Source of the DNA: Candidatus Kuenenbacteria bacterium CG08_land_8_20_14_0_20_37_23
Lineage (GTDB): Bacteria; Patescibacteriota; Patescibacteriia; UBA2196; GWA2-42-15
DNA length: 37,895 bases
Assembly: GCA_002778965.1 (NCBI GenBank)
Contig: PEXX01000036.1
Location: forward strand, 1 to 37,895
Direction of reading: 5' to 3'
Shown one piece after another: positions 4,440 through 32,619 of this stretch. Below the pieces are notes generated by a model that was not told the DNA's origin, ran no database searches, and saw only the letters and a program-made list of their open reading frames with translations. Within the stretch, counting starts at the first letter, position 1, and each line of letters starts with the position of its first letter. The position numbers were made by a program, and so were the translations under genes.

Positions 4440-4491
4440 AAATAGTTGCCTGCGCTTGCTGAATTTTTTGTTATATTATAAAATAAACTTA

Positions 4492-6702: not shown

Positions 6703-6743
6703 ATGTCCAACGCATCAAATGCTGATAAAATTTTTCTATTTTT

Positions 6744-8948
6744 ATGCTTAAAAAGATATTACTCATAACAATCGTTTCCGTTTTGCTCCTTATAAGAGGA
6801 TCTTTTAGGAATGCTCAAAAAATAGATGCTGAAGAAAACATATTGGCAGAACATATTTCTAACGAAGTCATCATTAAACTAAAAAATTCAGACAAAATAT
6901 ATTTACTGAAAACCACTTACGGCTTGCATGAAGTTATTGAAGTCAACCAGAGGAATCAAACGATAGAATATATTGAACCAAACTATCTTTATCGTGCGGC
7001 GATAGAGCCGCATGACCCTTTCTATACGCAGGAGTTGCATCTTTCCAGTACACGGGCGAATCTTGCATGGAATTATACGACCGGAAGCAAAGATTACACT
7101 ATTGCGATTATTGATACTGGAGTTGATATTGATCATGAAGATTTAAAAAATAACATCTGGCGCAATGTAGATGAGATTCAAGGAAACAGCATTGACGATG
7201 ACGGCAATGGTTTTATTGATGATGTAGTTGGTTGGGATTTTACATCAGAAAACCCTGACCCAAGGCCTAAATTCACAAATAATTACAGTTTTCTTGGTAT
7301 AAACCACGGCACAATCGTAGCTGGCATAGCAGCAGCCGAGGGAAATAACAGCATTGGCATAGTTGGTATAACTTGGCACGCTAGTATAATGTCTCTAAGG
7401 GTGCTGGATAGTTCTGGCACTGGCAATACTTTTGACGTTGCGAGAGCGATTGATTATGCAAGAGAAAACAATGCTCATATAATTAATCTTAGTTTTGTCG
7501 GTAGCGGTTATTCTGCGACATTGAATAAAGCCATAGAAAAAGCACATCAAGCGGGCATTTTAATCATAGCTGCTGCTGGCAATGAAGTTAACGAGGGAGT
7601 CAATATGAGCGATTCTCCTCAATATCCAGTGTGTCATGATGGATATAACGGCGACAATTGGGTTATTGGCGTGGCATCTCTTGATAATTCGGACAAACTG
7701 GCCAGTTTTTCAAATTATGGCGATTGTATTGACGTGGCAGCTCCTGGCGTTGGTCTTTTCAGCACTCTTTACCAAAATGAAAATTACAAAAAATTTAATC
7801 GAGCTTATGGCGGCTATTGGTCAGGTACGTCTGTATCAGCGCCACAAGTAGCCGGCTTAGCAGTTCTTTTAAAATCACTCAAGCCGATGCTTTCCGTTTT
7901 TGAGCTAAAAGATTTAATAATCAGTAATGCTGATAATGTTGAACATAAAAATTTTTTGTATCAAAACAAACTTGGCAGTGGAAAAATAAATATTTTGCAA
8001 TCAGTCATCGCTGCTCGAAAAATCACACCAAAAGCGGAATTATCTTTTGATAGAATAATTACCAGCCCTGACTCCAATGGTGGCCCGCACATTAAAATAT
8101 TTAAAGCCGATAAATTGGAAACTCAATTTTTTGCTTTTGAGGAAGATAAAATTTTTGGAGCCAATGTCGCTACTGTGGATATCAGTCAAGATGAGGTAGA
8201 AAATATTATAGTCAGCGCGGCCAAAGGTGAAAAGCCGTGGGTAAAAATTTTTGACATCTACGGCAATCAAAAAGCTAAATTTCTCGCTTTTGACGAAAAT
8301 TTTATTGGCGGAGTCAAAATTGCGGCCGGAGATGTTGATCATGACGGGGAAGACGAAATTGTCGCGGTGCCTGAAAGCGATTACGCCCCGATTGTTAAGA
8401 TATTTGCCTTAACAGGTTCATTGGAAAAAGAATTTTACGCTTTCAATAAATTTTTTACCAAAGGACTGAATATCGCTGTGGCTGATATAAATAATGACAA
8501 ATTTGATGAAATAATCATTACTCCAAGCCATGGCACATCGCCGATTATTAAATTTTTTAATTACGCGGGTTTGATAATCGGTCAATTTATGGCAAATGAC
8601 GCAAATTTTTTTAACGGCGTAAATATAGCTGTTGGAGATATCAATGGCGATAATCAACTGGAAATAATTACTGGTAATCGAGTAGGCGCTTCGCCTGAAG
8701 TTAAGATATTCAATGTTTCTGGGGTGATCTTGCGTAGATTTTTGGCCTATCATGAAAATTTTATCGGCGGAGTCAATGTGGCCGCTGGTGACATCAATGG
8801 CAACGGAATTGATGATATCGTCACAGGTGCCGGACCGGGCGGAGGTCCGCATGTAAGAATATTTACAGCTGACGGCCAAGTCATTACGCAATTTTTTGCC
8901 TATGATCAAAAATTCAGAGGGGGCGTAGCGGTTTCTGTAGAAAAATAA
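6744..8948 (+). CDS. Secreted subtilisin-family (S8) serine protease with C-terminal FG-GAP/VCBS-like repeat domain
   Basis: Signal anchor and an I9-like propeptide. Catalytic triad contexts IIDTGVD, NHGT and GTSVSAP. Six roughly 46-aa repeats follow (HIKIF, WVKIF, IVKIF, IIKFF, EVKIF, HVRIF, each followed by GDxxxDGxDEI-like loops). Confidence 0.85.
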   Translation: MLKKILLITIVSVLLLIRGSFRNAQKIDAEENILAEHISNEVIIKLKNSDKIYLLKTTYGLHEVIEVNQRNQTIEYIEPNYLYRAAIEPHDPFYTQELHLSSTRANLAWNYTTGSKDYTIAIIDTGVDIDHEDLKNNIWRNVDEIQGNSIDDDGNGFIDDVVGWDFTSENPDPRPKFTNNYSFLGINHGTIVAGIAAAEGNNSIGIVGITWHASIMSLRVLDSSGTGNTFDVARAIDYARENNAHIINLSFVGSGYSATLNKAIEKAHQAGILIIAAAGNEVNEGVNMSDSPQYPVCHDGYNGDNWVIGVASLDNSDKLASFSNYGDCIDVAAPGVGLFSTLYQNENYKKFNRAYGGYWSGTSVSAPQVAGLAVLLKSLKPMLSVFELKDLIISNADNVEHKNFLYQNKLGSGKINILQSVIAARKITPKAELSFDRIITSPDSNGGPHIKIFKADKLETQFFAFEEDKIFGANVATVDISQDEVENIIVSAAKGEKPWVKIFDIYGNQKAKFLAFDENFIGGVKIAAGDVDHDGEDEIVAVPESDYAPIVKIFALTGSLEKEFYAFNKFFTKGLNIAVADINNDKFDEIIITPSHGTSPIIKFFNYAGLIIGQFMANDANFFNGVNIAVGDINGDNQLEIITGNRVGASPEVKIFNVSGVILRRFLAYHENFIGGVNVAAGDINGNGIDDIVTGAGPGGGPHVRIFTADGQVITQFFAYDQKFRGGVAVSVEK

Positions 8949-9045
8949 TTCGGCCTTTATTATGCGTATCAAGCGCGCGTTTTTAAAATTCGCGTCAGAA
9001 AACCAGTTTTAATAACTGATAACCAGTAAATATATAAAAAATACA

Positions 9046-9546
9046 ATGATTAAAAAATTTTTTAATAAAATAATCGATAGATTCCGTTCCTTGCCATGTA
9101 TTAGAAAAAATCCTAGCGTTAAAGAAATCATTAAATACTCAATAGTTGGTAATTTCACGAGCATCCTGGATTTTGCCCTTTACATTTATCTGACTCGTTT
9201 TTTTCCATTTTGGAAGGAGCACTATTTGACGGCTAACTTTTTCGCAATATTGATAGATAGCGTCATTCGTTTTATTTTGCACAAAAAGTGGACATTCAGA
9301 AATGAAGGAAAAAATATCCATACGCAATATCTAAAATTCACCATAGTTTGCCTTTTGATCATGCTCACGGGTGAAGTTCTTCTCTATACAGCAGTTGAAT
9401 ATTTTGGTATTGGTGATGTTTTGGGTAAGCTTATTTCGTCTGTTATTATAACGATGTTTGCTTTCTTAAGCACTAAGTTGTGGGTCTTTGGACGCTCAAA
9501 AGAAAAACATATTGAAAAATATACTGGTCAAAATCTAAAAATTTGA
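9046..9546 (+). CDS. GtrA-family membrane protein
   Basis: Four predicted TM helices and a YSIVG...HKKWTFRN pattern typical of the GtrA family. Confidence 0.7.
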   Translation: MIKKFFNKIIDRFRSLPCIRKNPSVKEIIKYSIVGNFTSILDFALYIYLTRFFPFWKEHYLTANFFAILIDSVIRFILHKKWTFRNEGKNIHTQYLKFTIVCLLIMLTGEVLLYTAVEYFGIGDVLGKLISSVIITMFAFLSTKLWVFGRSKEKHIEKYTGQNLKI

Positions 9547-9586
9547 TATAATCAAATATAATCAACTAATATAAGAATTTTAATAT

Positions 9587-10597
9587 ATGAACATGTCAAC
9601 TTTGGCAACAGGAAGACCAAATATTATTATTACTGGCGGGGCAGGATTTCTTGGCTCGAATCTGGCGGGAGACATGGTCAAGACAAGCAACATTATCTGC
9701 ATTGATAATTTTATAACTGGCAACCAAAAAAATATTGATATACTATTGCAAAATCCGTATTTTGAATTTTTGCGGCATGATATCACTCGTCCTCTTGATT
9801 TCGACCAATTTCCAGAATTAAAAAAATTCCAAATTAAAGCGCAGGGGATCCAGTCAATTTATAATTTTGCCTGTCCGACATCGCCTTCAAATCACGCGAA
9901 ACTTGCGCTGGAGATACTTGAAGCCAACTCGTCTGGCACGAAAAATATGCTTGATCTGGCAAAAGAGTACCATGCCGTTTTTGTCCACATCTCAAGTCAG
10001 CATATTTATGGAAAGGCAATGTCAAGCCAGCCGATTAAAGAAAGCTATCTTGGAGCAGTTGACCCAATCGGTCCCAGAAGCGCCTATGACGAGGGAAAAA
10101 GATTCGCGGAAACAATAGCTAGTTATTACAAAAGGCAATTTAATTTGAACGTGAAAATAGCCCGCCTGTTCACATGTTATGGTCCCAAAATGGCTATTAA
10201 TGACGGCCGTTCAATTCCTGACTTTATTTTTGACGCCTTGAACAATAAAGATTTAATAATCTATGGAGATGAAAAAACCGAAAATACTTTTTGTTATGTC
10301 GCTGATATTGTGGATGCTTTGATAAAAATTGAAAAATCATCGCTTGCTGGTGCTGTCAATATTGGACATTATGAAAAATATACGCTGAAAAATATTGCGG
10401 AACGTATTATCAAATTGTGTGAATCATCCTCGGTTATCACTTATAAAGAACCAGACTGGCACGTAGCCTCATACAATATTCCTGATATTTCTCTGGCTAA
10501 AGAAGAGCTTGGCTGGTTTCCAATGGTGGACATAGAAGATGGGCTGTTGCGTACTATTGAATATATGAGATCAAATTTAAGGATCTATCAAATATAG
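9587..10597 (+). CDS. NAD-dependent epimerase/dehydratase, UDP-glucuronate decarboxylase (UXS)-like
   Basis: Rossmann motif TGGAGFLGSNL and SDR catalytic YDEGKR (YxxxK) in a UXS-like context. Confidence 0.75.
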   Translation: MNMSTLATGRPNIIITGGAGFLGSNLAGDMVKTSNIICIDNFITGNQKNIDILLQNPYFEFLRHDITRPLDFDQFPELKKFQIKAQGIQSIYNFACPTSPSNHAKLALEILEANSSGTKNMLDLAKEYHAVFVHISSQHIYGKAMSSQPIKESYLGAVDPIGPRSAYDEGKRFAETIASYYKRQFNLNVKIARLFTCYGPKMAINDGRSIPDFIFDALNNKDLIIYGDEKTENTFCYVADIVDALIKIEKSSLAGAVNIGHYEKYTLKNIAERIIKLCESSSVITYKEPDWHVASYNIPDISLAKEELGWFPMVDIEDGLLRTIEYMRSNLRIYQI

Positions 10598-10629
10598 TAA
10601 ATCCCAAATTCTAAATCCAAACTAAAATT

Positions 10630-10648
10630 ATTCTGGATTCAGAATTTT
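10630..10648 (+). terminator. Weak intrinsic terminator after the UXS-like gene
   Basis: ATTCTG-GATT-CAGAAT hairpin followed by a T-rich tract. Confidence 0.3.
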
Positions 10649-10687
10649 GAATTTTATAAAAATGTTTCAATTAATTATTAATAAAGT

Positions 10688-10777
10688 GCGGAGTACTCTA
10701 GCGCCTAACGGCGCAACAGAGTGCCAATTCTCGCTGCTCGACGCAAAAGAGTTTGCGTCTGGCTAAACGCTGGAACT
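10688..10777 (+). promoter_or_regulatory. Structured GC-rich 5' leader of metK (candidate riboswitch/attenuator, class unassigned)
   Basis: Hairpin 10693-10724 (GUACUCU-A-GCGCC-UAAC-GGCGC-AAC-AGAGUGC). Hairpin 10740-10759 (GACGCAAA-AGAG-UUUGCGUC). AGAGU at the loop/3'-arm junction of hairpin 2 can compete for ACUCU of hairpin 1. Confidence 0.4.
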
Positions 10778-11935
10778 ATGTTAAAACATATTTTTACTTC
10801 AGAATCCGTCACAGAAGGCCATCCTGATAAAATCGCGGACCAAATATCCGACGCCATTTTAGATGAGCTTATTAGACAAGACAAATTTAGTCACGCCGGC
10901 ATTGAAACTTTGCTCTCTACGGGGCTGGTGGTTATCGCCGGACAGATCAGAACCAAGGGCTATGTTGATATAGCTAAAATTGCGAGACAAACCATCAAAG
11001 AAATCGGCTATAACAACGGTAATATCGGTTTTTCCGCAGATGATTGCGGCGTCATCGTGGCAATTGATGAACAATCTCCGGATATTGCTCAAGGTGTTGA
11101 TAAAAATAAAGGCAAATATAAAAAACAAGGAGCCGGGGATCAGGGTTTAATGTTCGGTTATGCCTGTCGCGAAACTCGCGAGCTGATGCCGCTCTCAATT
11201 CTTATGTCGCATAAAATGGCCGCCAGACTGGCCGCGGTCAGAAAAAATAAAACCTTGCCTTATCTGCGGCCAGACGGCAAAATAGAATTGGCCGTTGAAT
11301 ATGAAAACACCAAACCGAAAAGACTGGATACGATAGTGGTGGCGGCCCAGCATAATGAGAAAATTTCCTTGCAAAAAATCCAGGCTGATATTATTAAATA
11401 TGTTGTTAAACCTGTTGCCGGCAAATATTTAGACGACAAGACAAAATTTTTTGTCAATGCCACTGGCCGTTTTGTCAAAGGCGGACCGCCAGCTGACACC
11501 GGTCTCACGGGTCGCAAAATTATTGTGGACACTTATGGCGGCCATGGCGCACACGGCGGCGGTTGTTTTTCCGGCAAGGACCCGAGTAAGGTTGACCGTT
11601 CCGCGTCCTATATGGCGCGCTATATTGCCAAAAATATGGTGGCGGCGGGTCTGGCTGATAGATGCGAAATTCAAATCGCTTATGTCATTGGCGTGGCCGA
11701 ACCGGTTTCAGTCTTAGTTGACACCAAGGGCACTGGAAAAATAAATGATGAAAAACTGGAAAAAATCGTTCGTCAAGAATTTCCTCTTACACCTGAAGGT
11801 ATTATCAACCACCTGCGACTATTGCGACCTATTTACAAAAAAACAGCGACCTACGGCCATTTTGGCCGCGAATTGCCGGAATTCACCTGGGAGAAAAAAG
11901 ACAAAATTGCTATTCTGAAAAAATATTTAAGATAA
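10778..11935 (+). CDS. metK: S-adenosylmethionine synthetase
   Basis: N-terminus [25 protein letters not shown] and a GAGDQG motif; full-length MetK-like sequence. The track's GTG start at 10721 adds a non-homologous extension. Confidence 0.95.
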
Positions 11936-11965
11936 AATAATTTATTTAACCATTTTCCCAAATTG

Positions 11966-11974
11966 TGGTATAAT
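11966..11974 (+). promoter_or_regulatory. Extended -10 promoter element TGgTATAAT
   Basis: TG-N-TATAAT match about 195 nt upstream of the pilin-like gene. AT-rich context lowers its specificity. Confidence 0.25.
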
Positions 11975-12168
11975 AAAGTCATTAGCTTATTTTCATATTA
12001 AAACCTCATGCAAATAACCTACTGTGACAAATGCAACCAGCAAAGAAATAATATTGTCAAAGTGTTGCGCAATTAGTATCAGCATCGGAAAATAATACTT
12101 TGCGGTTCGTCTTTAAGCGGTAATCTTAGCCAAAATAGAGTTAAAATTTAAAATTGATCCCAACACCT

Positions 12169-12543
12169 ATGCTTCCCAAAACTCATTTCCGTAAATTCAC
12201 GTTAATTATACTTCTCTTTATTCTATGCGCCAGTTTTTTAATAGCTCAAACAGCCGATACAACTTCCATAGAAAATCCATTAAAGAAAGAAGGCGGGCCA
12301 ATTGATCCGGAAGAATTATATGGGAGAATCATTTCCGGACTTTTAGGCTTTGTAGGCATTGTTTCACTGGTAGCTTTTGTATATGCCGGTTTTGTTTTTT
12401 TGATTTCCGCAGGTAATCCGGAACGGGTCAAAAAAGCAAAAGACACCATGATATACGCGGTAATTGGCGTGTTCGTTTCTATGGCCTCTTACGCTATTTT
12501 AAGTTTTATCTTCACCACTTTGGAAGAATCCACCGGACAATAA
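12169..12543 (+). CDS. Small secreted membrane protein, TrbC/VirB2-like (T4SS pilin-like) family
   Basis: Signal peptide, an IENPL motif, two hydrophobic helices flanking SAGNPERVKKAKD. ATG at 12169 is preferred over the TTG at 12154. Confidence 0.6.
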   Translation: MLPKTHFRKFTLIILLFILCASFLIAQTADTTSIENPLKKEGGPIDPEELYGRIISGLLGFVGIVSLVAFVYAGFVFLISAGNPERVKKAKDTMIYAVIGVFVSMASYAILSFIFTTLEESTGQ

Positions 12544-12861
12544 ACCCATGTTTTTTATTTTTTAACTTTAACCCACAATAACTCCGGAGAACTGAAGGCA
12601 GGTCAAGTGGGTAAAGATAGAAGGCGTCATAAATTATTGGTATTTATAACGACGTCTTCAGGTCTGGCGTATACGCACTTCCTACCCTCAGATCTCTATA
12701 GTTATTTTCATTAAAAAATTAAATAAGATAATTATCTTAAATCATGTGACCTTATCTAAGCATATTTTAATAATTTTGTCAAGTATTTATTAAAAAATTC
12801 AAAAAGGCCTATAATAAATATACTTGTGTATCATAAATACATTACCGATTCTTGTTAACTT

Positions 12862-12897
12862 TCAGCCCGCGGCTGGATAGCCACAAGCTGATTTTTT
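12862..12897 (+). terminator. Intrinsic terminator-like structure just upstream of the GalE-like gene
   Basis: TCAGC...GCTGA stem enclosing GGCT-GGAT-AGCC, followed by TTTTTT (12892-12897). Confidence 0.4.
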
Positions 12898-12909
12898 ATT
12901 TATCGTTTT

Positions 12910-13821
12910 ATGGCCATTTTGGTTACCGGGGGTGCAGGGTTTATTGGCTCGCATCTAACCGACAGTTTAATAGCCAAAAAACACCGAGTCATCGTTTTGG
13001 ATGACCTGTCTTCGGGGTTTAAAAAAAATATCAATGCCCAAGCCAAATTTTACCAACTGGACATTCAAAACAAAAAACTGAAAAATATTTTCAAAAAAGA
13101 AAAACCAAAGATTGTTTATCACTTGGCTGCCCAAATAAATGTCAGAAGATCAATTCAGGACCCAATTTTTGATGCCCAGAAGAATATTTTGGGTTCGCTA
13201 AATCTGCTGGAAAATTGCATAAAATATGCAGTAAAAAAATTTATCTTTATTTCAACAGGCGGAGCCATCTATGGCGATGGCGTTAAAGTTCCCACTCAGG
13301 AAAATGCCTTGAAACGGCCAACTTCGCCGTATGGCATTGCCAAATTATCTATTGAAAAATATCTCCACTACTACAACAATCAATATAACTTTAGATATAC
13401 TGTTCTACGTTTAGCCAATGTTTACGGTCCGCGCCAAAATTGGGAAGGCGAAGCTGGCGTAGTCGCTATTTTTTTAAATAATTTGAAAAATAAAAAACCT
13501 CTTAAAATTTTTGGCGGAAAACAAACCAGGGATTTTGTTTATGTATCCGATGTTGTGAATGCGTGCATCAAAGTGCTAAATCAAAAAAAAACAGCTATTT
13601 ACAATATCGGCACCGGAGAAGAAACAACCGTCAACCAGCTCGCAAAAAAAATATTAAAAATTTCAAACAAAAAAAACACAATTAAACATTTGCCATATAT
13701 CAAAGGCGAACAATTGAAAAATTGTCTGTCTTTTGCTAAAATAAAACAAGAGTTGCAATGGCAACCGCAATATGATTTAAATAGGGGATTGGAAGCAACC
13801 ATGGACTATTTTAAAAAATAA
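12910..13821 (+). CDS. NAD-dependent sugar epimerase (UDP-glucose 4-epimerase/GalE-like)
   Basis: TGGAGFIGSHL Rossmann motif and SDR catalytic YGIAK (YxxxK). Confidence 0.8.
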   Translation: MAILVTGGAGFIGSHLTDSLIAKKHRVIVLDDLSSGFKKNINAQAKFYQLDIQNKKLKNIFKKEKPKIVYHLAAQINVRRSIQDPIFDAQKNILGSLNLLENCIKYAVKKFIFISTGGAIYGDGVKVPTQENALKRPTSPYGIAKLSIEKYLHYYNNQYNFRYTVLRLANVYGPRQNWEGEAGVVAIFLNNLKNKKPLKIFGGKQTRDFVYVSDVVNACIKVLNQKKTAIYNIGTGEETTVNQLAKKILKISNKKNTIKHLPYIKGEQLKNCLSFAKIKQELQWQPQYDLNRGLEATMDYFKK

Positions 13822-13899
13822 AGACCAGATTTCATTTATTTTAATTCCAGTATCGGTATATCATAAAAACATTTTTCTGATTTTATTTATTTCCATACT

Positions 13900-15156
13900 A
13901 TGCTCCCCCAAAAATCCTTTTTACAAACCATGCACATGAAAACTCAATTAAATAAATATTTTTTACTTATCCTTATTTTGGGTTTTATTTTGTCGCCATG
14001 TTATATTTTGGCTGAAGTCGGAGGCGAAAGTGAAATCAAAAAATTGGCGGATGAAATTAAAGACAAACAGGTTCAAATAGACGAGCTGCGCGCTAAAATT
14101 GAGATCTACCAGAAAAATTTATCAAAGGCTCAATCTGAAACAAACTCGCTGAAAAATCAAATATATATTTTAGAGACTAAAATTGATAAAAAAGAAACTG
14201 AAATAAAACTTAATCAAGAAGAAACTGAAGAAACAAATTTGGAAATAAAAAAAACCGAGGAGGAAATTGAGTACAACGCGGAAGAAACGCAGGACAAAAA
14301 GAAAAAACTTGGGAAATTGTTGAGAGAGAGATATATTATAGATCAAAAAAATGACCTTGAGATAATCATTTTGAATGAGTCGCTGTCAGATTTCTTTCGC
14401 GTATTTCAAACTGCGGAAACAATCCAGGCAAGCGTTAACCAAACACTCATAGAGCTTAAAGAATTAAAAAAAAATCTGTTTGGGAAACAGCTTGAGTTAG
14501 AAGAAAAAAAGGAAAAACTTAACCATCTTAATGATGAATTGACAGGCTATAAAACAAATCTGGAGAGCCAACAATCAGTCAAGCAAAATATTTTATATCA
14601 GACAAAAAATTCGGAAGAGCGCTACGAAAACATGGTTAATGAACTCAGACTGGAACAGCAGCGCATGAACTCCGAGATTGTTGTTTTGGAAAAAACTATT
14701 CGTCAGAAACTTACTGATGACAAAAATAAGCTTGCCGAGCTTGGCAACGCAACATTTACATGGCCTGTGCCTAGTAGATATGTTACTGCCGCTTTCCATG
14801 ATCCTGATTATCCATTTCGCTATATTTTTGAACATCCCGGGATTGATATCAGAGCTTCGCAAGGCACGCCTCTCAAAGCATCCGCTTCAGGATATGTGGC
14901 GAAAGTTCAAGATGGTGGACGTTACGGTTATTCATATATTATGCTAATTCACAATGATGGCTTTGCCACTGTTTACGGCCACTTGAGCAAAATGTATGTG
15001 TCAGCGGATCAATTCGTCACTCAAGGCGAAGTAATTGGCGCGACCGGCGGCATGCCAGGCACTCATGGTGCCGGCCGTCTGACTACAGCTCCCCATATCC
15101 ATTTTGAGATAAGAAAAAATGGCATACCAGTCAATCCACTGGACTATCTGCCTTGA
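13900..15156 (+). CDS. M23 family peptidoglycan metalloendopeptidase with N-terminal coiled coil (EnvC-like architecture)
   Basis: Signal peptide (the real start may be M11/M13 at 13930/13936), about 250 aa of heptad-rich coiled coil, and a C-terminal LytM domain with intact HPGIDI and HIHFEI metal ligands. Confidence 0.85.
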   Translation: MLPQKSFLQTMHMKTQLNKYFLLILILGFILSPCYILAEVGGESEIKKLADEIKDKQVQIDELRAKIEIYQKNLSKAQSETNSLKNQIYILETKIDKKETEIKLNQEETEETNLEIKKTEEEIEYNAEETQDKKKKLGKLLRERYIIDQKNDLEIIILNESLSDFFRVFQTAETIQASVNQTLIELKELKKNLFGKQLELEEKKEKLNHLNDELTGYKTNLESQQSVKQNILYQTKNSEERYENMVNELRLEQQRMNSEIVVLEKTIRQKLTDDKNKLAELGNATFTWPVPSRYVTAAFHDPDYPFRYIFEHPGIDIRASQGTPLKASASGYVAKVQDGGRYGYSYIMLIHNDGFATVYGHLSKMYVSADQFVTQGEVIGATGGMPGTHGAGRLTTAPHIHFEIRKNGIPVNPLDYLP

Positions 15157-15159
15157 TTT

Positions 15160-15555
15160 ATGTCTCATGAAGAACAAATTGTCCAAATATTCTCCCGACT
15201 TAAGGAGATTTTTATTTTAGAAAATTTTCAATTCAAAATCATGCGCCGCCAGATAGACGAAGAGGGGAGAGGGGTGCTCAATTTGAAACGCAGCTACCGC
15301 CTAGCCCATACCAGCCTCAAAAACAAAACAATTACCGTTGATATCTACACACCGCGTTTCCGCAAGCCCAAATCAATCAGGTCAATTTTGAATATTCTCG
15401 CTCATGAAATCGCCCATCACCAAAAACTACCCTTCCGCCAACGCTTCCGCGGCCGTATTATTACTCGTCAGCACTATCCCGCTTTTTATGAGCAGGTTAA
15501 TAAAAATATAGAAAAAATAAAGAGAGACGAGATTTTAAAAGAATATTTTAAATAA
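15160..15555 (+). CDS. Small HExxH-motif protein (putative zinc metallopeptidase-like), function unknown
   Basis: 131 aa with LAHEIAHH. Starts 4 nt after the M23 peptidase stop. Confidence 0.5.
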   Translation: MSHEEQIVQIFSRLKEIFILENFQFKIMRRQIDEEGRGVLNLKRSYRLAHTSLKNKTITVDIYTPRFRKPKSIRSILNILAHEIAHHQKLPFRQRFRGRIITRQHYPAFYEQVNKNIEKIKRDEILKEYFK

Positions 15556-15681
15556 GGAGTAAAAAATGGATTTCATATTTACCTTTTCTTTTTTGCGTAT
15601 CAATATAATACGCTTATCATAGCCCAATGATACAAAAATTACGCGCCAAACCAACTCCCAACAATAGCCGCTAACATTTAT

Positions 15682-15742
15682 TTGACATAAATTTAATAAT
15701 GATATAATCTATAATTAAATATATCATTAATTATATAATCTA
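15682..15742 (+). promoter_or_regulatory. Promoter/operator region of the TA operon
   Basis: TTGACA (15682-15687) and TATAAT (15703-15708) with a short 15-nt spacer. Inverted repeat ATAATTAA/TTAATTAT (15711-15718/15727-15734). 10-bp direct repeat ATATAATCTA at 15702-15711 and 15733-15742. Confidence 0.4.
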
Positions 15743-15744
15743 AT

Positions 15745-16032
15745 ATGAACTCTATTCTACCTCAAACAATCTCTATCAGTGATTTACAGAAGAGAACCAA
15801 AGAAATATTTGATACTAAATTACAGGATAATGCCCCAACTCTGATACTCAATAGAAATGAGAAAGTCGGAGTTTTAATCAAACCCATGTTTTTTGAGGAA
15901 TTAATGTCAACCTATGAAGATTATCTGGACGGATTGGAGCTAATGAACGCCATCAACACCACTCCCAAAAAAGACCTTGAACCTTGGGATAAAATAAAGT
16001 TAGAGTTAAAAAAACACGGCAAATTATCCTAA
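15745..16032 (+). CDS. Type II antitoxin, Phd/YefM family
   Basis: 95 aa with N-terminal ISISDLQKRTKEIFD...PTLILNRNEKVGVLI typical of Phd/YefM. Lies 3 nt upstream of the toxin gene. Confidence 0.75.
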   Translation: MNSILPQTISISDLQKRTKEIFDTKLQDNAPTLILNRNEKVGVLIKPMFFEELMSTYEDYLDGLELMNAINTTPKKDLEPWDKIKLELKKHGKLS

Positions 16033-16035
16033 AAT

Positions 16036-16293
16036 ATGTACAAAATATTTCTTACTAGTAATGCCAAAAAGAGCTTATTTAAGTTGCCTCAAGAAACCGT
16101 AGAAAAAATCAATCGGGTCTTTGATATATTACAGCATAATCCCTTCACCGCTGATCACCATATCAAAAAATTACACCAGCCATTAATCGGCTATCGTTAT
16201 AAAGTCTGGCCCTATCGCATTTTATATACTGTGGATAATTCCCAAAAAATAATTGTAGTTTACCGCATTTTTCATCGTGGTAGGGGATATTAA
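16036..16293 (+). CDS. Type II toxin, RelE/ParE family
   Basis: 85 aa with the pattern NP...KKL...GYRYKVWPYRILYTVD...IIVVYRIFHRGRGY characteristic of the RelE/ParE superfamily. Confidence 0.8.
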   Translation: MYKIFLTSNAKKSLFKLPQETVEKINRVFDILQHNPFTADHHIKKLHQPLIGYRYKVWPYRILYTVDNSQKIIVVYRIFHRGRGY

Positions 16294-16330
16294 CTCCGCT
16301 GGTTCTGAACCATAAATTTTGTTAACACCT

Positions 16331-16748
16331 ACCACGCCTATTATCACCAGTATAGTCTTTAAACACATTCAGCCATTCCCTCGGCTGTTTTTTATTACTC
16401 TTTAAATTATGCCAACTTGACAACAGTCTCTTTTGGCCATTCACATTTCCAGTAAAACAAGGGAGACCCTACGGCCCGCCAATCAAACCAACCCCGCCTA
16501 AACATTTCATATAGACTATATGAAATGTTTAGGCAGCGGCCCACACTCATCTCTCCACCGCCTAAATGGCCGGTATAGTCTATTTCGGCCATTCAGGCAC
16601 CGACGGAGAAAGGGGAGTCGCGAGCGCTAACCCGCCCTCGCCCAACAGCTCCCGGCAATGGCTCGTACAGTCTATTCGAGCCATTTTCTGTCACCCCCCC
16701 CAGATCTCCCCGCTAAATCGCTAAAACAGACTATATTAGCGCTTTCTG
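16331..16748. repeat. Tandem array of six homologous hairpin/palindrome units with conserved core A(T/C)AG(T/A)CTAT
   Basis: U1 has core 16351-16358 with a degenerate stem. U2 is 16411-16437. U3 (16496-16534) is a perfect 19+1+19 palindrome. U4 is 16560-16598, U5 is 16657-16685, U6 is 16719-16741. Units share a C-rich CCGCCTAAA 5' flank and a TTYAGGC/TTTCTG 3' flank. Stem arms differ between units but stay complementary. Confidence 0.8.
16370..16393 (+). terminator. Weak intrinsic terminator after the TA operon
   Basis: CAGCC-ATTCCCTC-GGCTG followed by TTTTTT. Confidence 0.35.
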
Positions 16749-16752
16749 CCGC

Positions 16753-16779
16753 CCGCCTGATTCTTTCTAGGCGGTTTTT
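16753..16779 (+). terminator. Intrinsic terminator-like hairpin closing the hairpin array
   Basis: CCGCC-(12-nt loop)-GGCGG followed by TTTTT. Confidence 0.5.
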
Positions 16780-16781
16780 AT
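16760..16781 (+). repeat. Direct repeat copy A flanking the NYN gene
   Basis: ATTCTTTCTAG-GCGGTTTTTAT matches 17602-17626 (ATTCTTTCTAGCAGGCGGTTTTTAT) apart from a 3-nt indel. Confidence 0.7.
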
Positions 16782-16789
16782 GTTACAAT
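16781..16789 (+). promoter_or_regulatory. Extended -10 element TGTTACAAT upstream of the NYN gene
   Basis: TG-N-TACAAT lies 33 nt upstream of the ATG at 16822. Confidence 0.35.
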
Positions 16790-16821
16790 AGAAGTACTCT
16801 AAAGCGGGCGACACCAACCAT

Positions 16822-17400
16822 ATGCAAAACTGCTTTGAAAAATTCAATCAAAAAATCAACCATAAAAATAATATCATCTATATTTTTATTGACGCCTCTA
16901 ACCTATGGGAAGCGCAAAAAGCCAAGGGTAGATTTCTAGATTATGAAAAAACCCTGAAATTTATCAGGGATAATTTCACTTATTACAGCGCTTACCCGGC
17001 CGAGGGAACAAGGAATTATAATCTCGACGGCCGACATAAATTTTTTACTTTTCTCAACAAAAGCCTGGGATTTGAAGTGCGCAAAAAAGAACTCAAAAGA
17101 ATTACCGTGGTAGATGAGCATGGCGAGAGTATTAAAGAAAAAGGAGATATGGATGTTTGGATTACTCTCGACGCGGTCCATCATCTAAACAAATATCACA
17201 CCGCCATTCTATTTACGGGCGACTCGGATTTTCTCCCTCTGATCAACTACCTAAAAAATAACGGTAAAAAAGTTTTTATATTTTCTTCTCAAAATAATAT
17301 CTCCGAAGAATTGCGAACTGGCGGCGACGGCTATGCTGATGTCCTGAAAATACCCCGCATCTGGGGCCGAGCGTTAAAGTACAGGGAAGAAAAGCAATAA
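16822..17400 (+). CDS. NYN-domain (LabA-like, PIN-related) putative ribonuclease
   Basis: IFIDASNLW at the N-terminus, then GDMDVWITLDAV and ILFTGDSDFLPLINYLKNNGKKV, the conserved acidic motifs of NYN/PF01936-type proteins. Confidence 0.8.
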   Translation: MQNCFEKFNQKINHKNNIIYIFIDASNLWEAQKAKGRFLDYEKTLKFIRDNFTYYSAYPAEGTRNYNLDGRHKFFTFLNKSLGFEVRKKELKRITVVDEHGESIKEKGDMDVWITLDAVHHLNKYHTAILFTGDSDFLPLINYLKNNGKKVFIFSSQNNISEELRTGGDGYADVLKIPRIWGRALKYREEKQ

Positions 17401-17428
17401 AAAAAACTACCCTCCGCGAGGAGAGTAG
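17399..17428 (-). terminator. Minus-strand intrinsic terminator
   Basis: On the minus strand: CTACTCTCC-TCGC-GGAGGGTAG followed by eight T. The only imperfect pair is G-U on the minus strand (C-A on the plus strand). Confidence 0.6.
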
Positions 17429-17593
17429 CTCCTGGATGTAATACCCTTTTAGTTCCATGGCAGAACCAAAAGACATTATTATAATATCCTCTTCTGCCAA
17501 AAAAGTCAAATTTTTATCCACAGCTTACTGATTTTAATATCATTTTGACGTAAAATTATTAGGCCATCAAGCTCCTTATAATCTTTCCTTTAA

Positions 17594-17626
17594 CCAGTCT
17601 AATTCTTTCTAGCAGGCGGTTTTTAT
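17594..17626 (+). repeat. Direct repeat copy B (core-like CCAGTCTA plus ATTCTTTCTAGCAGGCGGTTTTTAT)
   Basis: Matches the U6-core-plus-terminator segment at 16727-16781, with the intervening 26 nt absent and a 3-nt insertion. Confidence 0.65.
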
Positions 17627-17650
17627 ATTCACCGATCAATAATTCTTAAT

Positions 17651-18622
17651 TTACTTGCCCAATGAATGAAAACTCCGGTGAATATCTTTCAGCCTCTTAT
17701 TAGTCACATGAGTATAAACTTGCGTCGTGGTAATAGACGAGTGGCCGAGCATCTCCTGAATGGCGCGCAAATCAGCCCCTTGGGAAAGCAGATCGGTGGC
17801 GTAAGAATGGCGGATCGTATGCGGCGAAGTAAATAGCGGCAGGCCGGATAATTTCACATATTTTTTTATAATTCTTTCCACCGAGCGCGCTGTCAGGCGC
17901 GCGTTTTCTTGATCCAATTCTTTGTCGTTAACATTGGGACTCATGTTGATAAATAGGGGAGCATAGTTATCATGGCGCGCCTCAAGATATTTTTTGAGCC
18001 ATTCCATCGCCCGCTCCGAAATATAAACCGTTCTGATTTTTTTCCCTTTACCAATAATTGATAATTCCATATCCTTATTTTTAAGGTTTAGCTGTTCAAT
18101 ATTAAGCGACGTTAACTCTGATACCCGCAGTCCGGTAGAAAATAATACTTCCATCAGCGCCCGGTCACGTAAACCCGCGGCTGTTTTTATATCCGGCATC
18201 TCCAAAAGTCTTTCTACCTGTTCCAAGGTCAGAAATTTTATCTTATTATCAGCCTTGGCATCTTTCGGTAAATTAATTTTTTTAGCCGGCAAGCATTTGA
18301 TATCGCGATCAGTAAAGTAGTTGAGTAGCGCGCGCAAAGCGATCAGATAATAATTTTGCGTTGTTTTTTTTAGCAGGTCCCCGGTACTAGATGACCTGGC
18401 CCGGGATAAAAAAATCTTGTAGGCCCAAATATCGTCTGCGGTTAATTCAGCCGGCCTCAAATCATCCTTGGCCTTGCTATGCAAAAATTCCAAAAATTTA
18501 TTCAGGAACATGCGATAATTCTCCTGGGTTTTATTAGATAAACCCTTTTCCACCTCGCAATATTCCAAAAAATCAGTTATGCGCGCCTTAATAGATTTAG
18601 CGGTTGATTGTTGCATAAACAT
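17651..18622 (-). CDS. Tyrosine site-specific recombinase, XerC/XerD family
   Basis: N-terminal SAM-like core-binding domain. Catalytic residue contexts GLRVSEL (R), HTIRHSYAT (HxxR), GHSS (H) and VYTHV (Y). Confidence 0.9.
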   Translation of the reverse strand: MFMQQSTAKSIKARITDFLEYCEVEKGLSNKTQENYRMFLNKFLEFLHSKAKDDLRPAELTADDIWAYKIFLSRARSSSTGDLLKKTTQNYYLIALRALLNYFTDRDIKCLPAKKINLPKDAKADNKIKFLTLEQVERLLEMPDIKTAAGLRDRALMEVLFSTGLRVSELTSLNIEQLNLKNKDMELSIIGKGKKIRTVYISERAMEWLKKYLEARHDNYAPLFINMSPNVNDKELDQENARLTARSVERIIKKYVKLSGLPLFTSPHTIRHSYATDLLSQGADLRAIQEMLGHSSITTTQVYTHVTNKRLKDIHRSFHSLGK

Positions 18623-20372: not shown

Positions 20373-20404
20373 ATGTTAATCTGAATTCAGATTAACATTT
20401 TTTT
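20373..20404 (+). promoter_or_regulatory. 26-bp perfect palindrome ATGTTAATCTGAATTCAGATTAACAT followed by a T-run (operator or 5' attenuator)
   Basis: 13+13 perfect inverted repeat at 20373-20398, with T-run 20398-20404. It lies between the divergent murA and PEGA-protein genes, 17 nt before the ATG at 20422. Confidence 0.45.
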
Positions 20405-24757: not shown

Positions 24758-26005
24758 TTACTCATATCTCAAAGCTTCAATAGGATCCAGCCCAGCAGCT
24801 TTTTTTGCCGGATATATACCGAAAAGAAGACCGACAAAAATCATAAACGTAAAAGAAATCATCATGCCCCTGATTGATACCACAAAATCAAGGTCAATTC
24901 CTTGCGCTTGCGCTATTATGGACGCCAACCAAGAAAAAATAATGCCCAAAAGCACACCCACGACCCCGCCAGTAGAAGTTATAAGCACGGCCTCTCCTAA
25001 AAATTGCCATAAAATATCCGAATTTCTCGCTCCAACTGATTTGCGCAAGCCTATCTCATATGTGCGCTCCAATACTGACACATACATAATATTCATAATT
25101 CCAACTCCGCCGACAATGAGGGATATCCCAGCAATGGCCACTAAAAATAAAGTTATTCCATTTAAAATTGTTGAGAGCATATTCATTGCCTCAGCTGAAG
25201 TAATTACGGCAAAATCATCTTTATTTGGATTGGTAATACCATGCGCTTCTCTCATTATTTCCGTTATTTCAACGGCTGTTTGATCGGCTTTTTTCGTATC
25301 AATTATTGAAGCCATAATAAACGATACATGGTCAATTCCCATTATTTTTTTTTGCAATGTCTTCAAAGGCACAATCAGCATGGAATCCATATCAAAAAAA
25401 GTGCCTCCTCCGATTTTTTCGCGCACCCCTACAACTCTGAATTTTGATTGGCCGATCTTAATTTTTTTGCCCAACGCGTCATTAGCGCCGAAAAGATCCT
25501 CCTTGATTGAATGTCCGAGAATTACAACCTGCGCGAGAGAATTATCCTCATCATCAGTAAATTCACGACCATACTCAATATCAGTTTTGTCAATCACGAA
25601 GAATCCGCTTGACGCTCCCCATAACATACAGACTTTATTTTCATCTTCGTAAGACGCGATCTCCTGCCCCATAACCGCTGAATATACTTCGCTTACGTTA
25701 GGATTTTTTTTAATATCCATAGCCTCTTTGTGTTTTAAAGTTGTGATAGTTACTCCCTGCGCCATACTGCCGGCGTTAGCGGTTGACGCTTGTTTGGTTG
25801 ACGGAACCTTAACCTCAATTTCAATATAGTCAGTACCAAAAACTTCAACCTGCTTTTGGATAAAATTTTTAAGTCCCTGCCCAGTGTTGATAATCACAAT
25901 CACTGAAGTAATGCCAATTATAATGCCCAAAACAGATAACAACGTCCTTATCCGTTGCGTTTGAAAAATTTTTATTGATATTTTAATGTTGCGTAAAAAA
26001 GTCAT
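24758..26005 (-). CDS. MacB/FtsX-type ABC transporter permease (paralog 2)
   Basis: N-terminal TM helix, a large extracytoplasmic domain (MacB_PCD-like), and a C-terminal FtsX 3-TM bundle with a RTYEIGLRKSVGA motif. Confidence 0.85.
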   Translation of the reverse strand: MTFLRNIKISIKIFQTQRIRTLLSVLGIIIGITSVIVIINTGQGLKNFIQKQVEVFGTDYIEIEVKVPSTKQASTANAGSMAQGVTITTLKHKEAMDIKKNPNVSEVYSAVMGQEIASYEDENKVCMLWGASSGFFVIDKTDIEYGREFTDDEDNSLAQVVILGHSIKEDLFGANDALGKKIKIGQSKFRVVGVREKIGGGTFFDMDSMLIVPLKTLQKKIMGIDHVSFIMASIIDTKKADQTAVEITEIMREAHGITNPNKDDFAVITSAEAMNMLSTILNGITLFLVAIAGISLIVGGVGIMNIMYVSVLERTYEIGLRKSVGARNSDILWQFLGEAVLITSTGGVVGVLLGIIFSWLASIIAQAQGIDLDFVVSIRGMMISFTFMIFVGLLFGIYPAKKAAGLDPIEALRYE

Positions 26006-26031
26006 GACAAAATTCTTAAATTTAGTTTAAA

Positions 26032-27264
26032 TCACTCCGCGCTCAATGCCTCTATTGGCTCCATTTTAGCGGCTTTGGCAGCCGGATAAGAGCCAAAAAT
26101 AAGACCTACTGCCGCTGAAACTCCAAGCCCAAGAAATATTGAGGAAATGGTTATTACAAAATCCCACTTATAGCCGATTTGCTTAGCAATCGTAGCTATA
26201 AGCCACGACAAGATGCTGCCGCTAATGATTCCAATTATTCCGCCAAAAACAGTTATTGTTAAAGATTCAATTAAAAACTGTTTTAAGATATTCATTCGCG
26301 TTGCCCCAACCGCCTTGCGCAAACCAATCTCTTTTGTCCTTTCCGTAATATTAACAAGCATAATATTCATTATGCCGACACCTCCGACCAGAAGCGATAT
26401 GGCTGCAATTCCTGCAAGAAAAAACCGCAAAGCGTTTGTTACGGAAGTCAAAACATCCAGGGCCTGATCAAGAGAACGCACTGAAAAATCATCTTGCGCG
26501 GCATTAGATATATTATGGTTCTCTCGAACGACCGCCTCTATCTCTCCTGTCATCATATCAATATTCGCATTATCTTCGAACTTGCCGCGAATAAGAGACA
26601 CGTGATTTATGCCTAGAAGGATCTTCTGCGCGGTTTTAATCGGTATAAATACTTGTGTATCTTTATTTTCAAATGCCACTGTGCCTCTTTTTCCCATTAC
26701 GCCAATTACACGAAAATTTTGTTTTTTAATTTTTAGAATCTCGCCTATTGCTTGTCCATCTCCGAACAAATCTTGCTTAATAGCGTCGCCAATCACCACG
26801 ACGCGCGACAGATTTTTTGATTCATTATCATCAAAAAATCTGCCTTCAGCCACGGCGGCGTCTTCTATGATAAGCATCGCAGGCGTTGTTCCAACATATG
26901 TTATATCAACTTTTTGACTGTCGAAAACAGCGCTGTCCACTCCGCGCACATAAGCTGTTGCGGCTATAACTCCAGGAACCTTGTTGATATCTTCAAGCTC
27001 GTCTAGCTTCAATGTCGTAACTGTTATGCCCATTACTGAAGCCGGCGGACCATTTTCGTCAGCCGCGCCAGGAGTTATACCAAAAAGATTAGAGCCAAAA
27101 CTAGATATTTCATTTACCAAAAGACTTTGCGCGCCTGCGCCAACTGACATGATAACAATTACCGAACCAACGCCGATAATAATGCCAAGTATTGTCAAAA
27201 ATGCGCGTTTTTTGTTAGCGCGCAGACAGTTTAAAGATAATTTAACACTTGATAAAAAATTCAT
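26032..27264 (-). CDS. MacB/FtsX-type ABC transporter permease (paralog 1)
   Basis: Same architecture as its neighbour, with a RTKEIGLRKAVGA motif. Confidence 0.85.
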   Translation of the reverse strand: MNFLSSVKLSLNCLRANKKRAFLTILGIIIGVGSVIVIMSVGAGAQSLLVNEISSFGSNLFGITPGAADENGPPASVMGITVTTLKLDELEDINKVPGVIAATAYVRGVDSAVFDSQKVDITYVGTTPAMLIIEDAAVAEGRFFDDNESKNLSRVVVIGDAIKQDLFGDGQAIGEILKIKKQNFRVIGVMGKRGTVAFENKDTQVFIPIKTAQKILLGINHVSLIRGKFEDNANIDMMTGEIEAVVRENHNISNAAQDDFSVRSLDQALDVLTSVTNALRFFLAGIAAISLLVGGVGIMNIMLVNITERTKEIGLRKAVGATRMNILKQFLIESLTITVFGGIIGIISGSILSWLIATIAKQIGYKWDFVITISSIFLGLGVSAAVGLIFGSYPAAKAAKMEPIEALSAE

Positions 27265-27313
27265 TTTATAAACAATAGAATTCCATTTGGCAAAAAATGG
27301 AATTCTTTCATTT

Positions 27314-28030
27314 TTATTTTACTAGTCCATTTTTTAAGTCTACCCTGCTTTGGACGCTACTGTCAGATTCAAGAATACCGTCTCTAATTTTAATTATTCT
27401 TTTGGCTGTATTGGCCGTATACTGTTCATGGGTTACCAAAATTATAGTTTTGCCTTTTTCATTTAAATTAACAAGAATTTCCATCACCTGCTGTCCTGAC
27501 ATGGAATCAAGATTGCCAGTCGGCTCGTCCGCAAAAATGACTTCCGGATTATTAACCAGGGCGCGCGCTATGGCAACTCTCTGCTTTTCTCCGCCGGACA
27601 ATTGGTTTGAAAAATGATCCAACCGATGCTCAAGTCCGACTGATTTCAGGGCTTTCATTGCCGCCGATGCTTTGTCTCGGGCGCCATTATATTCCAATGG
27701 CAAAATAACATTATTTAAGACAGTCGTGCGCGCCAAAAGATTGAATGACTGGAAAACAAAACCAATTTTTTTATTGCGCAATTCGGCCAATTTATTGTCA
27801 TCAAATTCATTTATATTTTGGCCTTCAAACAAATATTCTCCGCTAGTGGATCTGTCTAGAAAACTCAAGATATGCACCAATGTAGACTTGCCAGACCCGG
27901 AAGGACCCATAATAGCTACAAAATCGCCTTTGTCTATCTCAAAACTCACGCCATGCAAAACCTTGGTTATGACTTCACCCGTTTCAAACTGTTTTTTTAT
28001 ATTCTTAATTTTTATTAAAACATCTTCCAT
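27314..28030 (-). CDS. ABC transporter ATP-binding protein, MacB/LolD-like
   Basis: Walker [10 protein letters not shown], signature LSGGEKQR, Walker [12 protein letters not shown]. Confidence 0.9.
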
Positions 28031-28048
28031 GTTAATGATAACTGATAA

Positions 28049-29701: not shown

Positions 29702-29707
29702 ACAAAT

Positions 29708-29739
29708 AAATTGTTAAATTAAACCGTTAAATTGTTAAA
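29708..29739. promoter_or_regulatory. 11-bp direct repeat AAATTGTTAAA x2 upstream of the efflux operon
   Basis: Copies at 29708-29718 and 29729-29739 (21-bp phasing), immediately upstream of the adaptor start codon at 29701. Confidence 0.2.
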
Positions 29740-29742
29740 AAA

Positions 29743-30516: not shown

Positions 30517-30588
30517 ATTTTTAAATAAACAAATGAATAAAAAAATAAATTTATATAAAATAATTTAATGGCAATACGCCGTAAAAGA

Positions 30589-31074
30589 TTAAAACGCTAA
30601 TATATAAATTCCTAAACTGGTAAAACTGACTATTGCCGCCGCTATTATAGCTCCAATGCTTACCAATATAAAAGATTTTTTTTTCTCTATGCCAAAAAGC
30701 CACGCAGCGATTGATCCTGTCCATATGCCAGTTGTCGGCAATGGTATGGCGATAAACAGCACCAAGGCTAAATCTCCAAAACGTTGATATTTGTCATAAA
30801 ATTTATTTCTTGTTCTTAAAAATATCCAATTGAAAAATTTCCTAAAAAATTCTGATTTTGAAAATAAATAAGATGCCAAAGGATTTATCAAAACTATAAT
30901 CAAAAAGCCAATGCTCAAATTACCCAAAAGCGACCAGAACAACGCAGACGATATCGGCAAGCCATAGACAAATAAACCCATTGGAATTGAAACCCTCACT
31001 TCGGCGATCGGCAGCATTGCCATAATGAACGTTGCCAATTCGCCCGGCAAATTATTTAAAAAAGAAAAATTCAT
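30589..31074 (-). CDS. Small membrane protein, putative small multidrug export protein family (COG2426-like)
   Basis: 161 aa with 4-5 TM helices and an MLPIAEVRVSIPMG N-terminal motif as in that family. Confidence 0.55.
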   Translation of the reverse strand: MNFSFLNNLPGELATFIMAMLPIAEVRVSIPMGLFVYGLPISSALFWSLLGNLSIGFLIIVLINPLASYLFSKSEFFRKFFNWIFLRTRNKFYDKYQRFGDLALVLFIAIPLPTTGIWTGSIAAWLFGIEKKKSFILVSIGAIIAAAIVSFTSLGIYILAF

Positions 31075-31107
31075 AAATTCATAAAAAATTTACAAAAAAC
31101 TAACTAA

Positions 31108-31980: not shown

Positions 31981-32048
31981 AAAAAGTATCTAACACCTAA
32001 AAACATCTGCTCTTTTGTTTCCACGCGGTTCAAGATTATTGTTGAAAT

Positions 32049-32606: not shown

Positions 32607-32619
32607 AATATTGAATTCA

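Follow-up and report, generated by a model that had tools for sequence, protein, structure and literature searches.

A single-locus palindrome cluster and an apparently inserted NYN nuclease module beside a Xer recombinase gene in a Kuenenbacteria genome

A 37,895-nt stretch of DNA from Candidatus Kuenenbacteria bacterium CG08_land_8_20_14_0_20_37_23 (contig PEXX01000036.1, positions 1–37,895; hereafter the window) was analysed with a focus on an array of hairpin-like repeat units. The array lies in a 528 bp gap between the stop codon of a ParE/RelE toxin gene (16293) and the start codon of an NYN nuclease gene (16822). The flanking genes were those assigned in a preliminary description made from the sequence alone: a Phd/YefM antitoxin gene and the ParE/RelE gene on one side, the NYN gene and a tyrosine recombinase gene of the Xer type on the other (Table 1). 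As that description had also held, no credible open reading frame (ORF) was present inside the gap. The gap contained six copies of a motif, the units U1 to U6, with core centres at 16355, 16427, 16515, 16579, 16671 and 16730 and a spacing of 59–92 bp. All units were in direct orientation and were separated by linkers of 25–58 nt.

Table 1. Coordinates of the features in the window and, where a locus handle (L) is given, of the corresponding features in other loci. sRNA, small RNA.
Feature	Position	Strand	Remarks
131-aa gene	15160–15555	+	orthologues L112 9061–9453, L113 10208–10603, L114 9100–9480
Phd/YefM antitoxin	15745–16032	+	
ParE/RelE toxin	16036–16293	+	
U1, decayed	16336–16374	.	core TATAGTCTT and right flank CATTCAG retained; stem gone; minimum free energy 0 kcal/mol
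T1, intrinsic-terminator-like hairpin	16370–16392	+	CAGCCATTCCCTCGGCTG then T6; ends the Phd–ParE operon
U2, decayed	16408–16446	.	right arm TTTTGGCCATTCA U4-like (direct-repeat family, 89%); left arm replaced
U3	16496–16534	.	perfect 19 + 1 + 19 palindrome GCCTAAA-CATTTCAT-ATAGACTAT-ATGAAATG-TTTAGGC
U4 hairpin	16560–16598	.	GCCTAAA-TGGCCGGT-ATAGTCTAT-TTCGGCCA-TTCAGGC
U5 hairpin	16657–16685	.	AATGGCTCG / TACAGTCTATT / CGAGCCATT
U6, weak hairpin	16719–16741	.	CGCTAA / AACAGACTATA / TTAGCG
T7, intrinsic terminator	16752–16784	+	CCGCCTGATTCTTTCTAGGCGG then T5; hairpin 16753–16774
NYN module, inserted	16785–17593	+	extended −10 (TGTTACAAT, 16781–16789); NYN ORF 16822–17400; antisense sRNA gene and its promoter
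sRNA, about 77 nt	17398–17476	−	convergent with NYN, antisense to the NYN 3′ region
sRNA promoter	17481–17509	−	TTGACT (17509–17504), 17-nt spacer, TATTAT (17486–17481)
Direct repeat, right copy, partly decayed	17594–17629	+	21 bp from the Xer stop codon
Xer-type tyrosine recombinase	17651–18622	−	housekeeping copy; murA synteny in relatives
sRNA in other loci	L011 5608–5689; L013 792–873; L014 5600–5681; L016 5556–5637; L125 2592–2673; L127 2596–2677; L129 2609–2690	−	
NYN-flanking repeat pairs in other loci	L011 4916–4968/5832–5883; L013 91–145/967–1021; L016 4890–4986/5675–5769		

The core, written as RYAGWCTMT, matched seven times in the window. The matches represented five sites (two matched on both strands), all of them within the approximately 310 bp from 16423 to 16734 and none elsewhere; 1.5 matches were expected by chance per window, and none of 100 shuffles gave seven. 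GC content peaked in the array block, at 0.533 (+3.2 standard deviations; window mean 0.364), and the + strand of the block was rich in C (104 C against 60 G). U3 was the top short-loop inverted repeat of the window. Its description as a perfect palindrome and that of the block as GC-rich were both confirmed, as was the terminator-like hairpin with a T-run on the + strand at the end of the array (T7). U4 paired over 19 positions with 16 Watson–Crick pairs, one G-T, one A/C and one T/T, whereas the stems of U5 (9 bp, perfect) and U6 (6 bp) were shorter. Both U5 and U6 were trailed by TTTCTG; U3 and U4 lacked U-tracts. U1 lay downstream of the ParE stop codon and ahead of the ParE terminator (T1), and the two + strand terminators T1 and T7 bracketed the array block. 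The stem base of T7 (CCGCCT/AGGCGG) resembled the unit bases, and T7 was in register with the array. The closest pair of units shared 79% identity over 29 nt, and Tandem Repeats Finder detected neither an array nor a 36-nt period, so that the label "tandem array" was not upheld by this program. The linker between U4 and U5 contained, on the minus strand (16626–16648), a G-rich segment (GGGAGCTGTTGGGCGAGGGCGGG) that was spotted by eye and fits the canonical G-quadruplex pattern.

When single units were folded and compared with dinucleotide shuffles, U3 gave a z-score of about −10 (−24 and −26 kcal/mol), U4 of about −5.5 and U5 of about −4. U2 was marginal (z = −2.4 and −1.5), U6 was no better than its shuffles (z = −0.6 to −0.9) and U1 was unfolded. 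The array is three good hairpins, one weak hairpin and two relics, not six hairpins: the preliminary description had placed the six cores correctly, but only U3, U4 and U5 folded beyond shuffles. The whole block folded with a z-score of about −7 on either strand. Folding energies were nearly equal between the strands, in agreement with the strand ambiguity noted previously.

In an alignment anchored on the core, the units matched including their flanks. U3 and U4 shared an identical foot (CGCCTAAA ... TTYAGGC) and an identical tip (ATAG-W-CTAT). In the middle stem segment all eight positions differed between them on both arms, yet the arms were still complementary. U5 was a derivative of U4 with two compensated changes. 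Over the six units, double-sided changes had occurred in 11 of the 19 pairs; no shuffle among 500 matched this, and the signal was lost when the partner columns were shifted. The units are thus homologous, with stems that differ in sequence while remaining complementary, as had been claimed. The further claim, that this pattern argues for selection on hairpins and against simple duplication, stood in part: duplication plus drift is not the whole story, but template switching could give the same signal. Template switching within a quasipalindrome can copy one arm onto the other without selection, and covariation among paralogous palindromes can reflect either hairpin selection or such switching.

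A homologous array was not found in any collection searched. The covariance model R1, built from the units as the preliminary description had suggested, was run over 1.38 Mb (the window and other loci) and returned the six training units and pattern-selected loci only. The pattern GCCTAAA-N-ATAGNCTAT-N-TTYAGGC gave four chance matches with non-palindromic stems in metagenome contigs and none in viral contigs. In the viral contigs, a consensus pattern of U4 and U5 was likewise without matches and a three-core pattern retrieved unrelated tandem repeats only. No match for the array was obtained with blastn against phages and plasmids, and a spurious 61-aa ORF over U2–U4, used as a proxy against 5.8 billion proteins, matched only itself. 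A scan of a genome collection with the Xer protein gave nothing above 49% identity, and the source species was recovered neither there nor in the metagenome pattern scan. For the whole window, Rfam yielded nothing at gathering thresholds and only chance-level matches in a permissive search, and a tRNA/tmRNA scan found none. A CRISPR (clustered regularly interspaced short palindromic repeats) array was rejected: the units diverged in their stems, the linkers ranged from 25 to 58 nt, no CRISPR family matched at the Rfam gathering thresholds, and no cas gene was present among the 38 window ORFs scanned.

The same six-unit layout was present in all of the contigs listed (at least 20, from several groundwater data sets), and no strain variant lacking NYN or having another number of units was among them. 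Of the 14 polymorphic events recorded over 10.4 kb, 4 fell in the array, which was the most polymorphic segment among strains. In five of ten strain contigs, an uncompensated GG insertion (AATGGGGCTCG) in the U5 left arm (16657–16667) bulges the stem. The other array variants were a 1-nt deletion (16545) and variation in the length and bases of a poly-C run (16693–16699); assembly errors in homopolymers may account for some of the array indels.

Orthologues of the 131-aa gene upstream of the Phd–ParE pair (65–73% identity) and of the Xer gene (67–73%) were convergent neighbours in three relatives. In two of these the gap between the genes was 70 and 148 bp, and the third (L113) had a different insert. 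Given this direct adjacency in the relatives, the segment 15556–17650, comprising the toxin–antitoxin (TA) pair, the array and NYN, consists of lineage-specific additions at a variable spot. The insert in L113, a sister Kuenenbacteria genome, consists of a 197-aa ORF flanked by GC-rich sequence (8949–9305 and 9900–10207) that is unrelated to the window array; it supports a reading of the junction of the 131-aa gene and Xer as an insertion hot spot. Cumulative GC skew peaked at approximately 11–15 kb and was negative thereafter to the window end. Genes were on the + strand at 4456–17400 and mostly on the − strand at 24758–37180, with orientation converging near the array. Judged from this one window, the replication terminus is probably close by.

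The NYN protein was recognised by Pfam (E = 4e-22). It belongs to a very large family of more than 1500 homologues, with 65–80% identity across Kuenenbacteria, Jorgensenbacteria, Giovannonibacteria, Doudnabacteria and Moranbacteria, for which PADLOC gave a match to a LabA-like NYN nuclease model (E = 2e-11). At seven other distinct NYN loci (L011, L013, L014, L016, L125, L127 and L129) the upstream sequence was unrelated and the unit covariance model was silent. A co-occurrence of the motif with NYN homologues, which had been put forward as a check, was thus seen at none of the seven, and the array was shown to have no specific relationship to NYN. The genes can be multi-copy per genome, in contexts that resemble defence or mobile islands: L011 contained three NYN genes together with Fic, Gp49/HTH and GIY-YIG; the L014 gene had Fic, methylase, ResIII and ISL3 fragments in its surroundings; and in L127 the gene lay between hsdM and hsdS of a type I restriction–modification system.

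In the window, T7 doubled as the left copy of a direct repeat of 33–36 bp that borders the NYN module; the alignment of its two copies scored 37, a value that none of 200 shuffles reached (mean 19.5, maximum 33). NYN homologues elsewhere were also bordered by locus-specific direct repeats of 24–97 bp, which were clearly significant at L011, L013, L016 and L129, borderline at L125 and L127, and absent at L014. A hairpin or the target terminator was contained in the flanking repeat in the window, L011, L013 and L016. Because the terminator is one copy of the direct repeat and NYN homologues are likewise flanked by repeats, NYN came in through an insertion of about 810 bp with duplication of the target, later than the array and between the array and Xer. 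Before this insertion, the array had the 3′ end of Xer as its direct neighbour, within approximately 60 bp of the Xer stop codon. The behaviour of the module is thus that of a small mobile element which enters directly past terminators and duplicates them, with no transposase evident. Two further derivations were dropped: the array as scars or fragments of NYN modules (no similarity between array and module on either strand), and the TA pair as bordered by unit remnants (alignment score 19, with shuffles averaging 19.7).

We tentatively read the array, at somewhat less than even probability, as a lineage-specific palindrome cluster that resembles repetitive extragenic palindromic (REP) sequences and bacterial interspersed mosaic elements (BIMEs), is related to an intrinsic terminator, and is at most a putative transcript-end or insulator structure. 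A unit of approximately 60–90 bp, made up of a C-rich linker and a palindrome, would have been duplicated in tandem. The copies would then have diverged with their palindromes retained, either by weak hairpin selection or by template switching within the hairpin (quasipalindrome correction), and the outer copies would have decayed afterwards. The units appear to have a common origin with an intrinsic-terminator hairpin (base CCGCCT...AGGCGG). The array occupies the convergent junction of the + strand genes (the 131-aa gene and Phd–ParE) with Xer, at the switch in GC skew. Read-through transcripts of the + strand would carry first the hairpins and then the strong terminator T7, as 3′-end or insulator structures that might end or stabilise the transcripts ahead of the convergently oriented Xer gene.

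The likeness to the REP sequences and BIMEs of Enterobacteria and Pseudomonas lies in imperfect palindromes of 25–40 bp whose stems are kept by compensatory changes, in intergenic clusters at gene 3′ ends, in a GC content above that of the surroundings, in copies that are variously decayed and in the effects on transcript ends that would be expected. The general definition of 20–40 bp imperfect palindromes, extragenic and at the 3′ ends of genes, applied to the array, which lies downstream of ParE and upstream of T7. In contrast to those elements, the array is a single locus without dispersed copies in 37.9 kb, its units have direct rather than alternating orientation, and a tip box (ATAGNCTAT) is conserved besides the base. 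No GTAG-type motif was present at the 5′ foot of the units, and no gene for a REP-associated tyrosine transposase (RAYT, a Y1 transposase) was found among the window ORFs scanned. With neither dispersal nor a RAYT gene found in the window, the array would fall outside the REP family as defined. Tandem intrinsic terminators offer a second comparison. T7 is in register and has a stem base in common with the units, TTTCTG follows U5 and U6, and the location between convergent genes is as for terminators; U3 and U4, however, have no U-tracts, the array stems are far longer than terminators need, and the tip is conserved.

Several observations weigh against the favoured reading. REP sequences and BIMEs are dispersed in many copies, whereas no second copy of the array was found in the window or in 1.3 Mb of other loci, nor was a RAYT. 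Folds of the minus strand were slightly more stable, and the mismatches compatible with G-U pairing slightly favoured the minus strand as well. A pattern scanner gave no convincing promoter within the array block and did not call U3–U6 as + strand terminators. Finally, the exact conservation of foot and tip around a replaced 8-bp spacer in U3 and U4 is unexplained by a model of generic hairpins; their design looks more like two constrained recognition elements spaced by a fixed helix.

It is possible, if rather doubtful, that the array is a functionless neutral relic, in which a tandemly duplicated palindrome, perhaps of foreign GC-rich origin, is decaying and complementarity has arisen through template switching only. 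Its confinement to one species would be expected from such a relic: the metagenome pattern scan gave only chance matches, and the phage, plasmid, viral and ORF-proxy searches gave none. Strain polymorphism, with the uncompensated GG in U5, and the degradation of U1, U2 and U6 point in the same direction, and a flawless U3 is what would be seen just after a correction event. Decay fits less well with U3 and U4 having the same base and tip boxes around wholly different 8-bp segments, with double changes at more than half of the aligned pairs (11 of 19), and with a locus whose six-unit layout was fixed in all contigs recovered.

An element acting at the DNA level, as part of the terminus or of Xer recombination, is unlikely. 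The units would then be dif-like or structure-specific recombination sites, or integration scars. The peak in GC skew with the converging gene orientation, the former proximity of the array to the Xer stop codon and the recurrence of insertions at this spot in relatives are consistent with such a role, and the arrangement of a box, an 8-bp spacer and a box loosely recalls a folded attC site. Integron attC sites and clusters of attC sites lacking integron-integrases (CALIN) are also folded hairpins with two conserved boxes around a variable spacer, a TA cassette and a tyrosine recombinase are close by here, and the array base GCCTAAA/TTTAGGC is one base off a common R″/R′ pair. However, a search for R″ (RYYYAAC) and R′ (GTTRRRY) boxes at the foot of a 57–141 bp imperfect hairpin found no such pair in the window; the array units are 39 bp long without extrahelical bases, and no gene cassettes lie between them. 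The attC/CALIN identity was therefore rejected. The recombinase had XerD and XerC as its best matches and scored 114 bits on TIGR02249, far below the integron-integrase cut-off of 265; it is convergent, and it is syntenic in relatives that lack the array. Searches for dif by the canonical consensus and by k-mers common with relatives returned nothing convincing, the best matches being unconserved and inside coding sequence, although canonical dif makes a weak test for a single-Xer organism of the candidate phyla radiation (CPR), whose dif site may differ. A Xer/dif site consists of two conserved inverted arms for the recombinase around a 6–8 bp centre and is kept among relatives; no motif common with the array was found in the Xer-proximal intergenic DNA of the three relatives. 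The repeat that flanks NYN is T7 and not a U unit, and the TA pair is without significant flanking repeats. The preliminary description had offered the units as arm–spacer–arm sites for the adjacent recombinase; this gained no positive support, since Xer is the syntenic housekeeping copy and the would-be binding arms differ completely between units.

We consider it quite improbable that the array encodes a stand-alone structured non-coding RNA, such as a multi-hairpin sponge in which an AGWCU loop on stems of fixed length titrates an RNA-binding protein. A conserved tip on variable stems, the high GC content in an AT-rich genome, the strong + strand terminator at the array end and the whole-block z-score on both strands would all suit such an RNA. 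The z-scores, however, were driven by the palindromes and were equal on both strands, only three hairpins were intact, and strain polymorphism fell inside a stem. The pattern scanner found no promoter in the array block, no Rfam family matched, and no homologue was detected in the other genomes searched.

The foot and tip of U3 and U4 keep a small probability for a structure-specific protein-recognition site. In this improbable scenario, the foot GCCTAAA/TTYAGGC and the tip ATAG-W-CTAT, held exactly 8 bp apart by a stem of free sequence, would be read by a protein on folded DNA or RNA. The obvious candidate would be the single, terminus-proximal Xer, in a nascent or dying attC-like system of single-strand recombination or capture, with the TA pair and the NYN–sRNA module as captured cargo.

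The preliminary description had compared the locus with type III TA systems (ToxIN-like), in which the array would be the antitoxin RNA and the NYN nuclease the toxin. This is very unlikely. On the surface, the succession of a repeat block, a terminator and a nuclease gene does fit. The units, however, are neither regular nor near-identical tandem repeats, the nuclease has a different fold, none of the seven other close NYN homologues has the array upstream, and the terminator is a duplicated insertion target, one half of a direct repeat. NYN also has its own promoter and, on its other side, its own conserved antisense sRNA. The NYN insertion and this sRNA module explain why a nuclease gene lies beside a terminator here.

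Stem-loop TIGR (tandem interspaced guide RNA) arrays occur widely in CPR and have variable palindromic stems, variable linkers (PMC12045711; bioRxiv 10.64898/2026.09.09.750476) and a terminator at the end (Faure et al. 2025, PMC12045711). With the published detection logic, which looks for two 8–12 nt spacers in the unit loop, each between a box C (CNA) and a box D (YG), no box C-N9-box D interval pairs (14-nt intervals) with flanking stems were found on either strand, and single intervals numbered 5 and 2 against about 4 expected. As the window ORFs scanned also contained no Nop/Tas gene, a 36-nt period was absent, and the variable segments pair mutually and leave no single-stranded spacers flanked by boxes C and D, identity with such an array is next to impossible.

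The antisense sRNA gene of the NYN module was present at all eight distinct NYN loci, with a promoter of the TTGACA-17-TATAMT type and with a terminator directly adjoining the NYN stop codon. RNAalifold predicted two hairpins around an invariant single-stranded GGGUAUYACAUCC. In the alignment, 97.8% of cells paired and nine pairs had double changes (0 of 500 shuffles). The orientation of the sRNA is fixed by the numerous G-U pairs, which arise on the minus strand only. The hairpin that serves as the sRNA terminator has no U-tract on the NYN strand, so the NYN mRNA should read through and be complementary to the sRNA. By analogy, this layout would be the architecture of a type I TA system with 3′ overlap, with the nuclease as putative toxin. 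Like txpA/RatA and bsrG/SR4, the module has a convergent sRNA with its own promoter and a terminator abutting the protein stop codon, which makes the read-through mRNA complementary, and it is apparently mobile, multi-copy and found in variable contexts. Unlike in these systems, the protein is a nuclease of 190–200 aa (the putative toxin) and not a small membrane peptide, and the module is bordered by long target duplications (24–97 bp). The sRNA matched no Rfam family, and no description of it was found in the literature searched.

Three further features of the neighbourhood were observed. The 131-aa gene and its orthologues encode a conserved protein of 126–131 aa, always beside an M23 peptidase gene; the protein has a HEIAH(H/T/I)QK motif (HExxH, metalloprotease-like) and matched neither Pfam nor NCBIfam. 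Directly 5′ of phd, AT-rich overlapping repeats and palindromes (TAATGATATAATCTATAATTAAATATATCAT, three copies; 15697–15758) cover the likely promoter and are probably the autoregulatory operator of the Phd–ParE pair. In the 61-bp divergent gap between murA and a PEGA-domain gene, a perfect 26-bp palindrome (ATGTTAATCTGAATTCAGATTAACAT, 20373–20398) was found; L113 and L114 carry its half-site (AGATTAAC/AGATTAGC) in the corresponding position, so a regulator may bind there.

As it stands, the array is a curiosity: a palindrome cluster at a single locus, in a single species, within an insertion hot spot. Covariation within an array does not on its own establish a functional RNA. The ToxIN analogy, plausible as it looked, did not survive a co-occurrence test and the insertion anatomy. 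The NYN–sRNA module, apparently mobile and very widespread in CPR, is a better candidate than the array for a new RNA-controlled TA system or selfish element.

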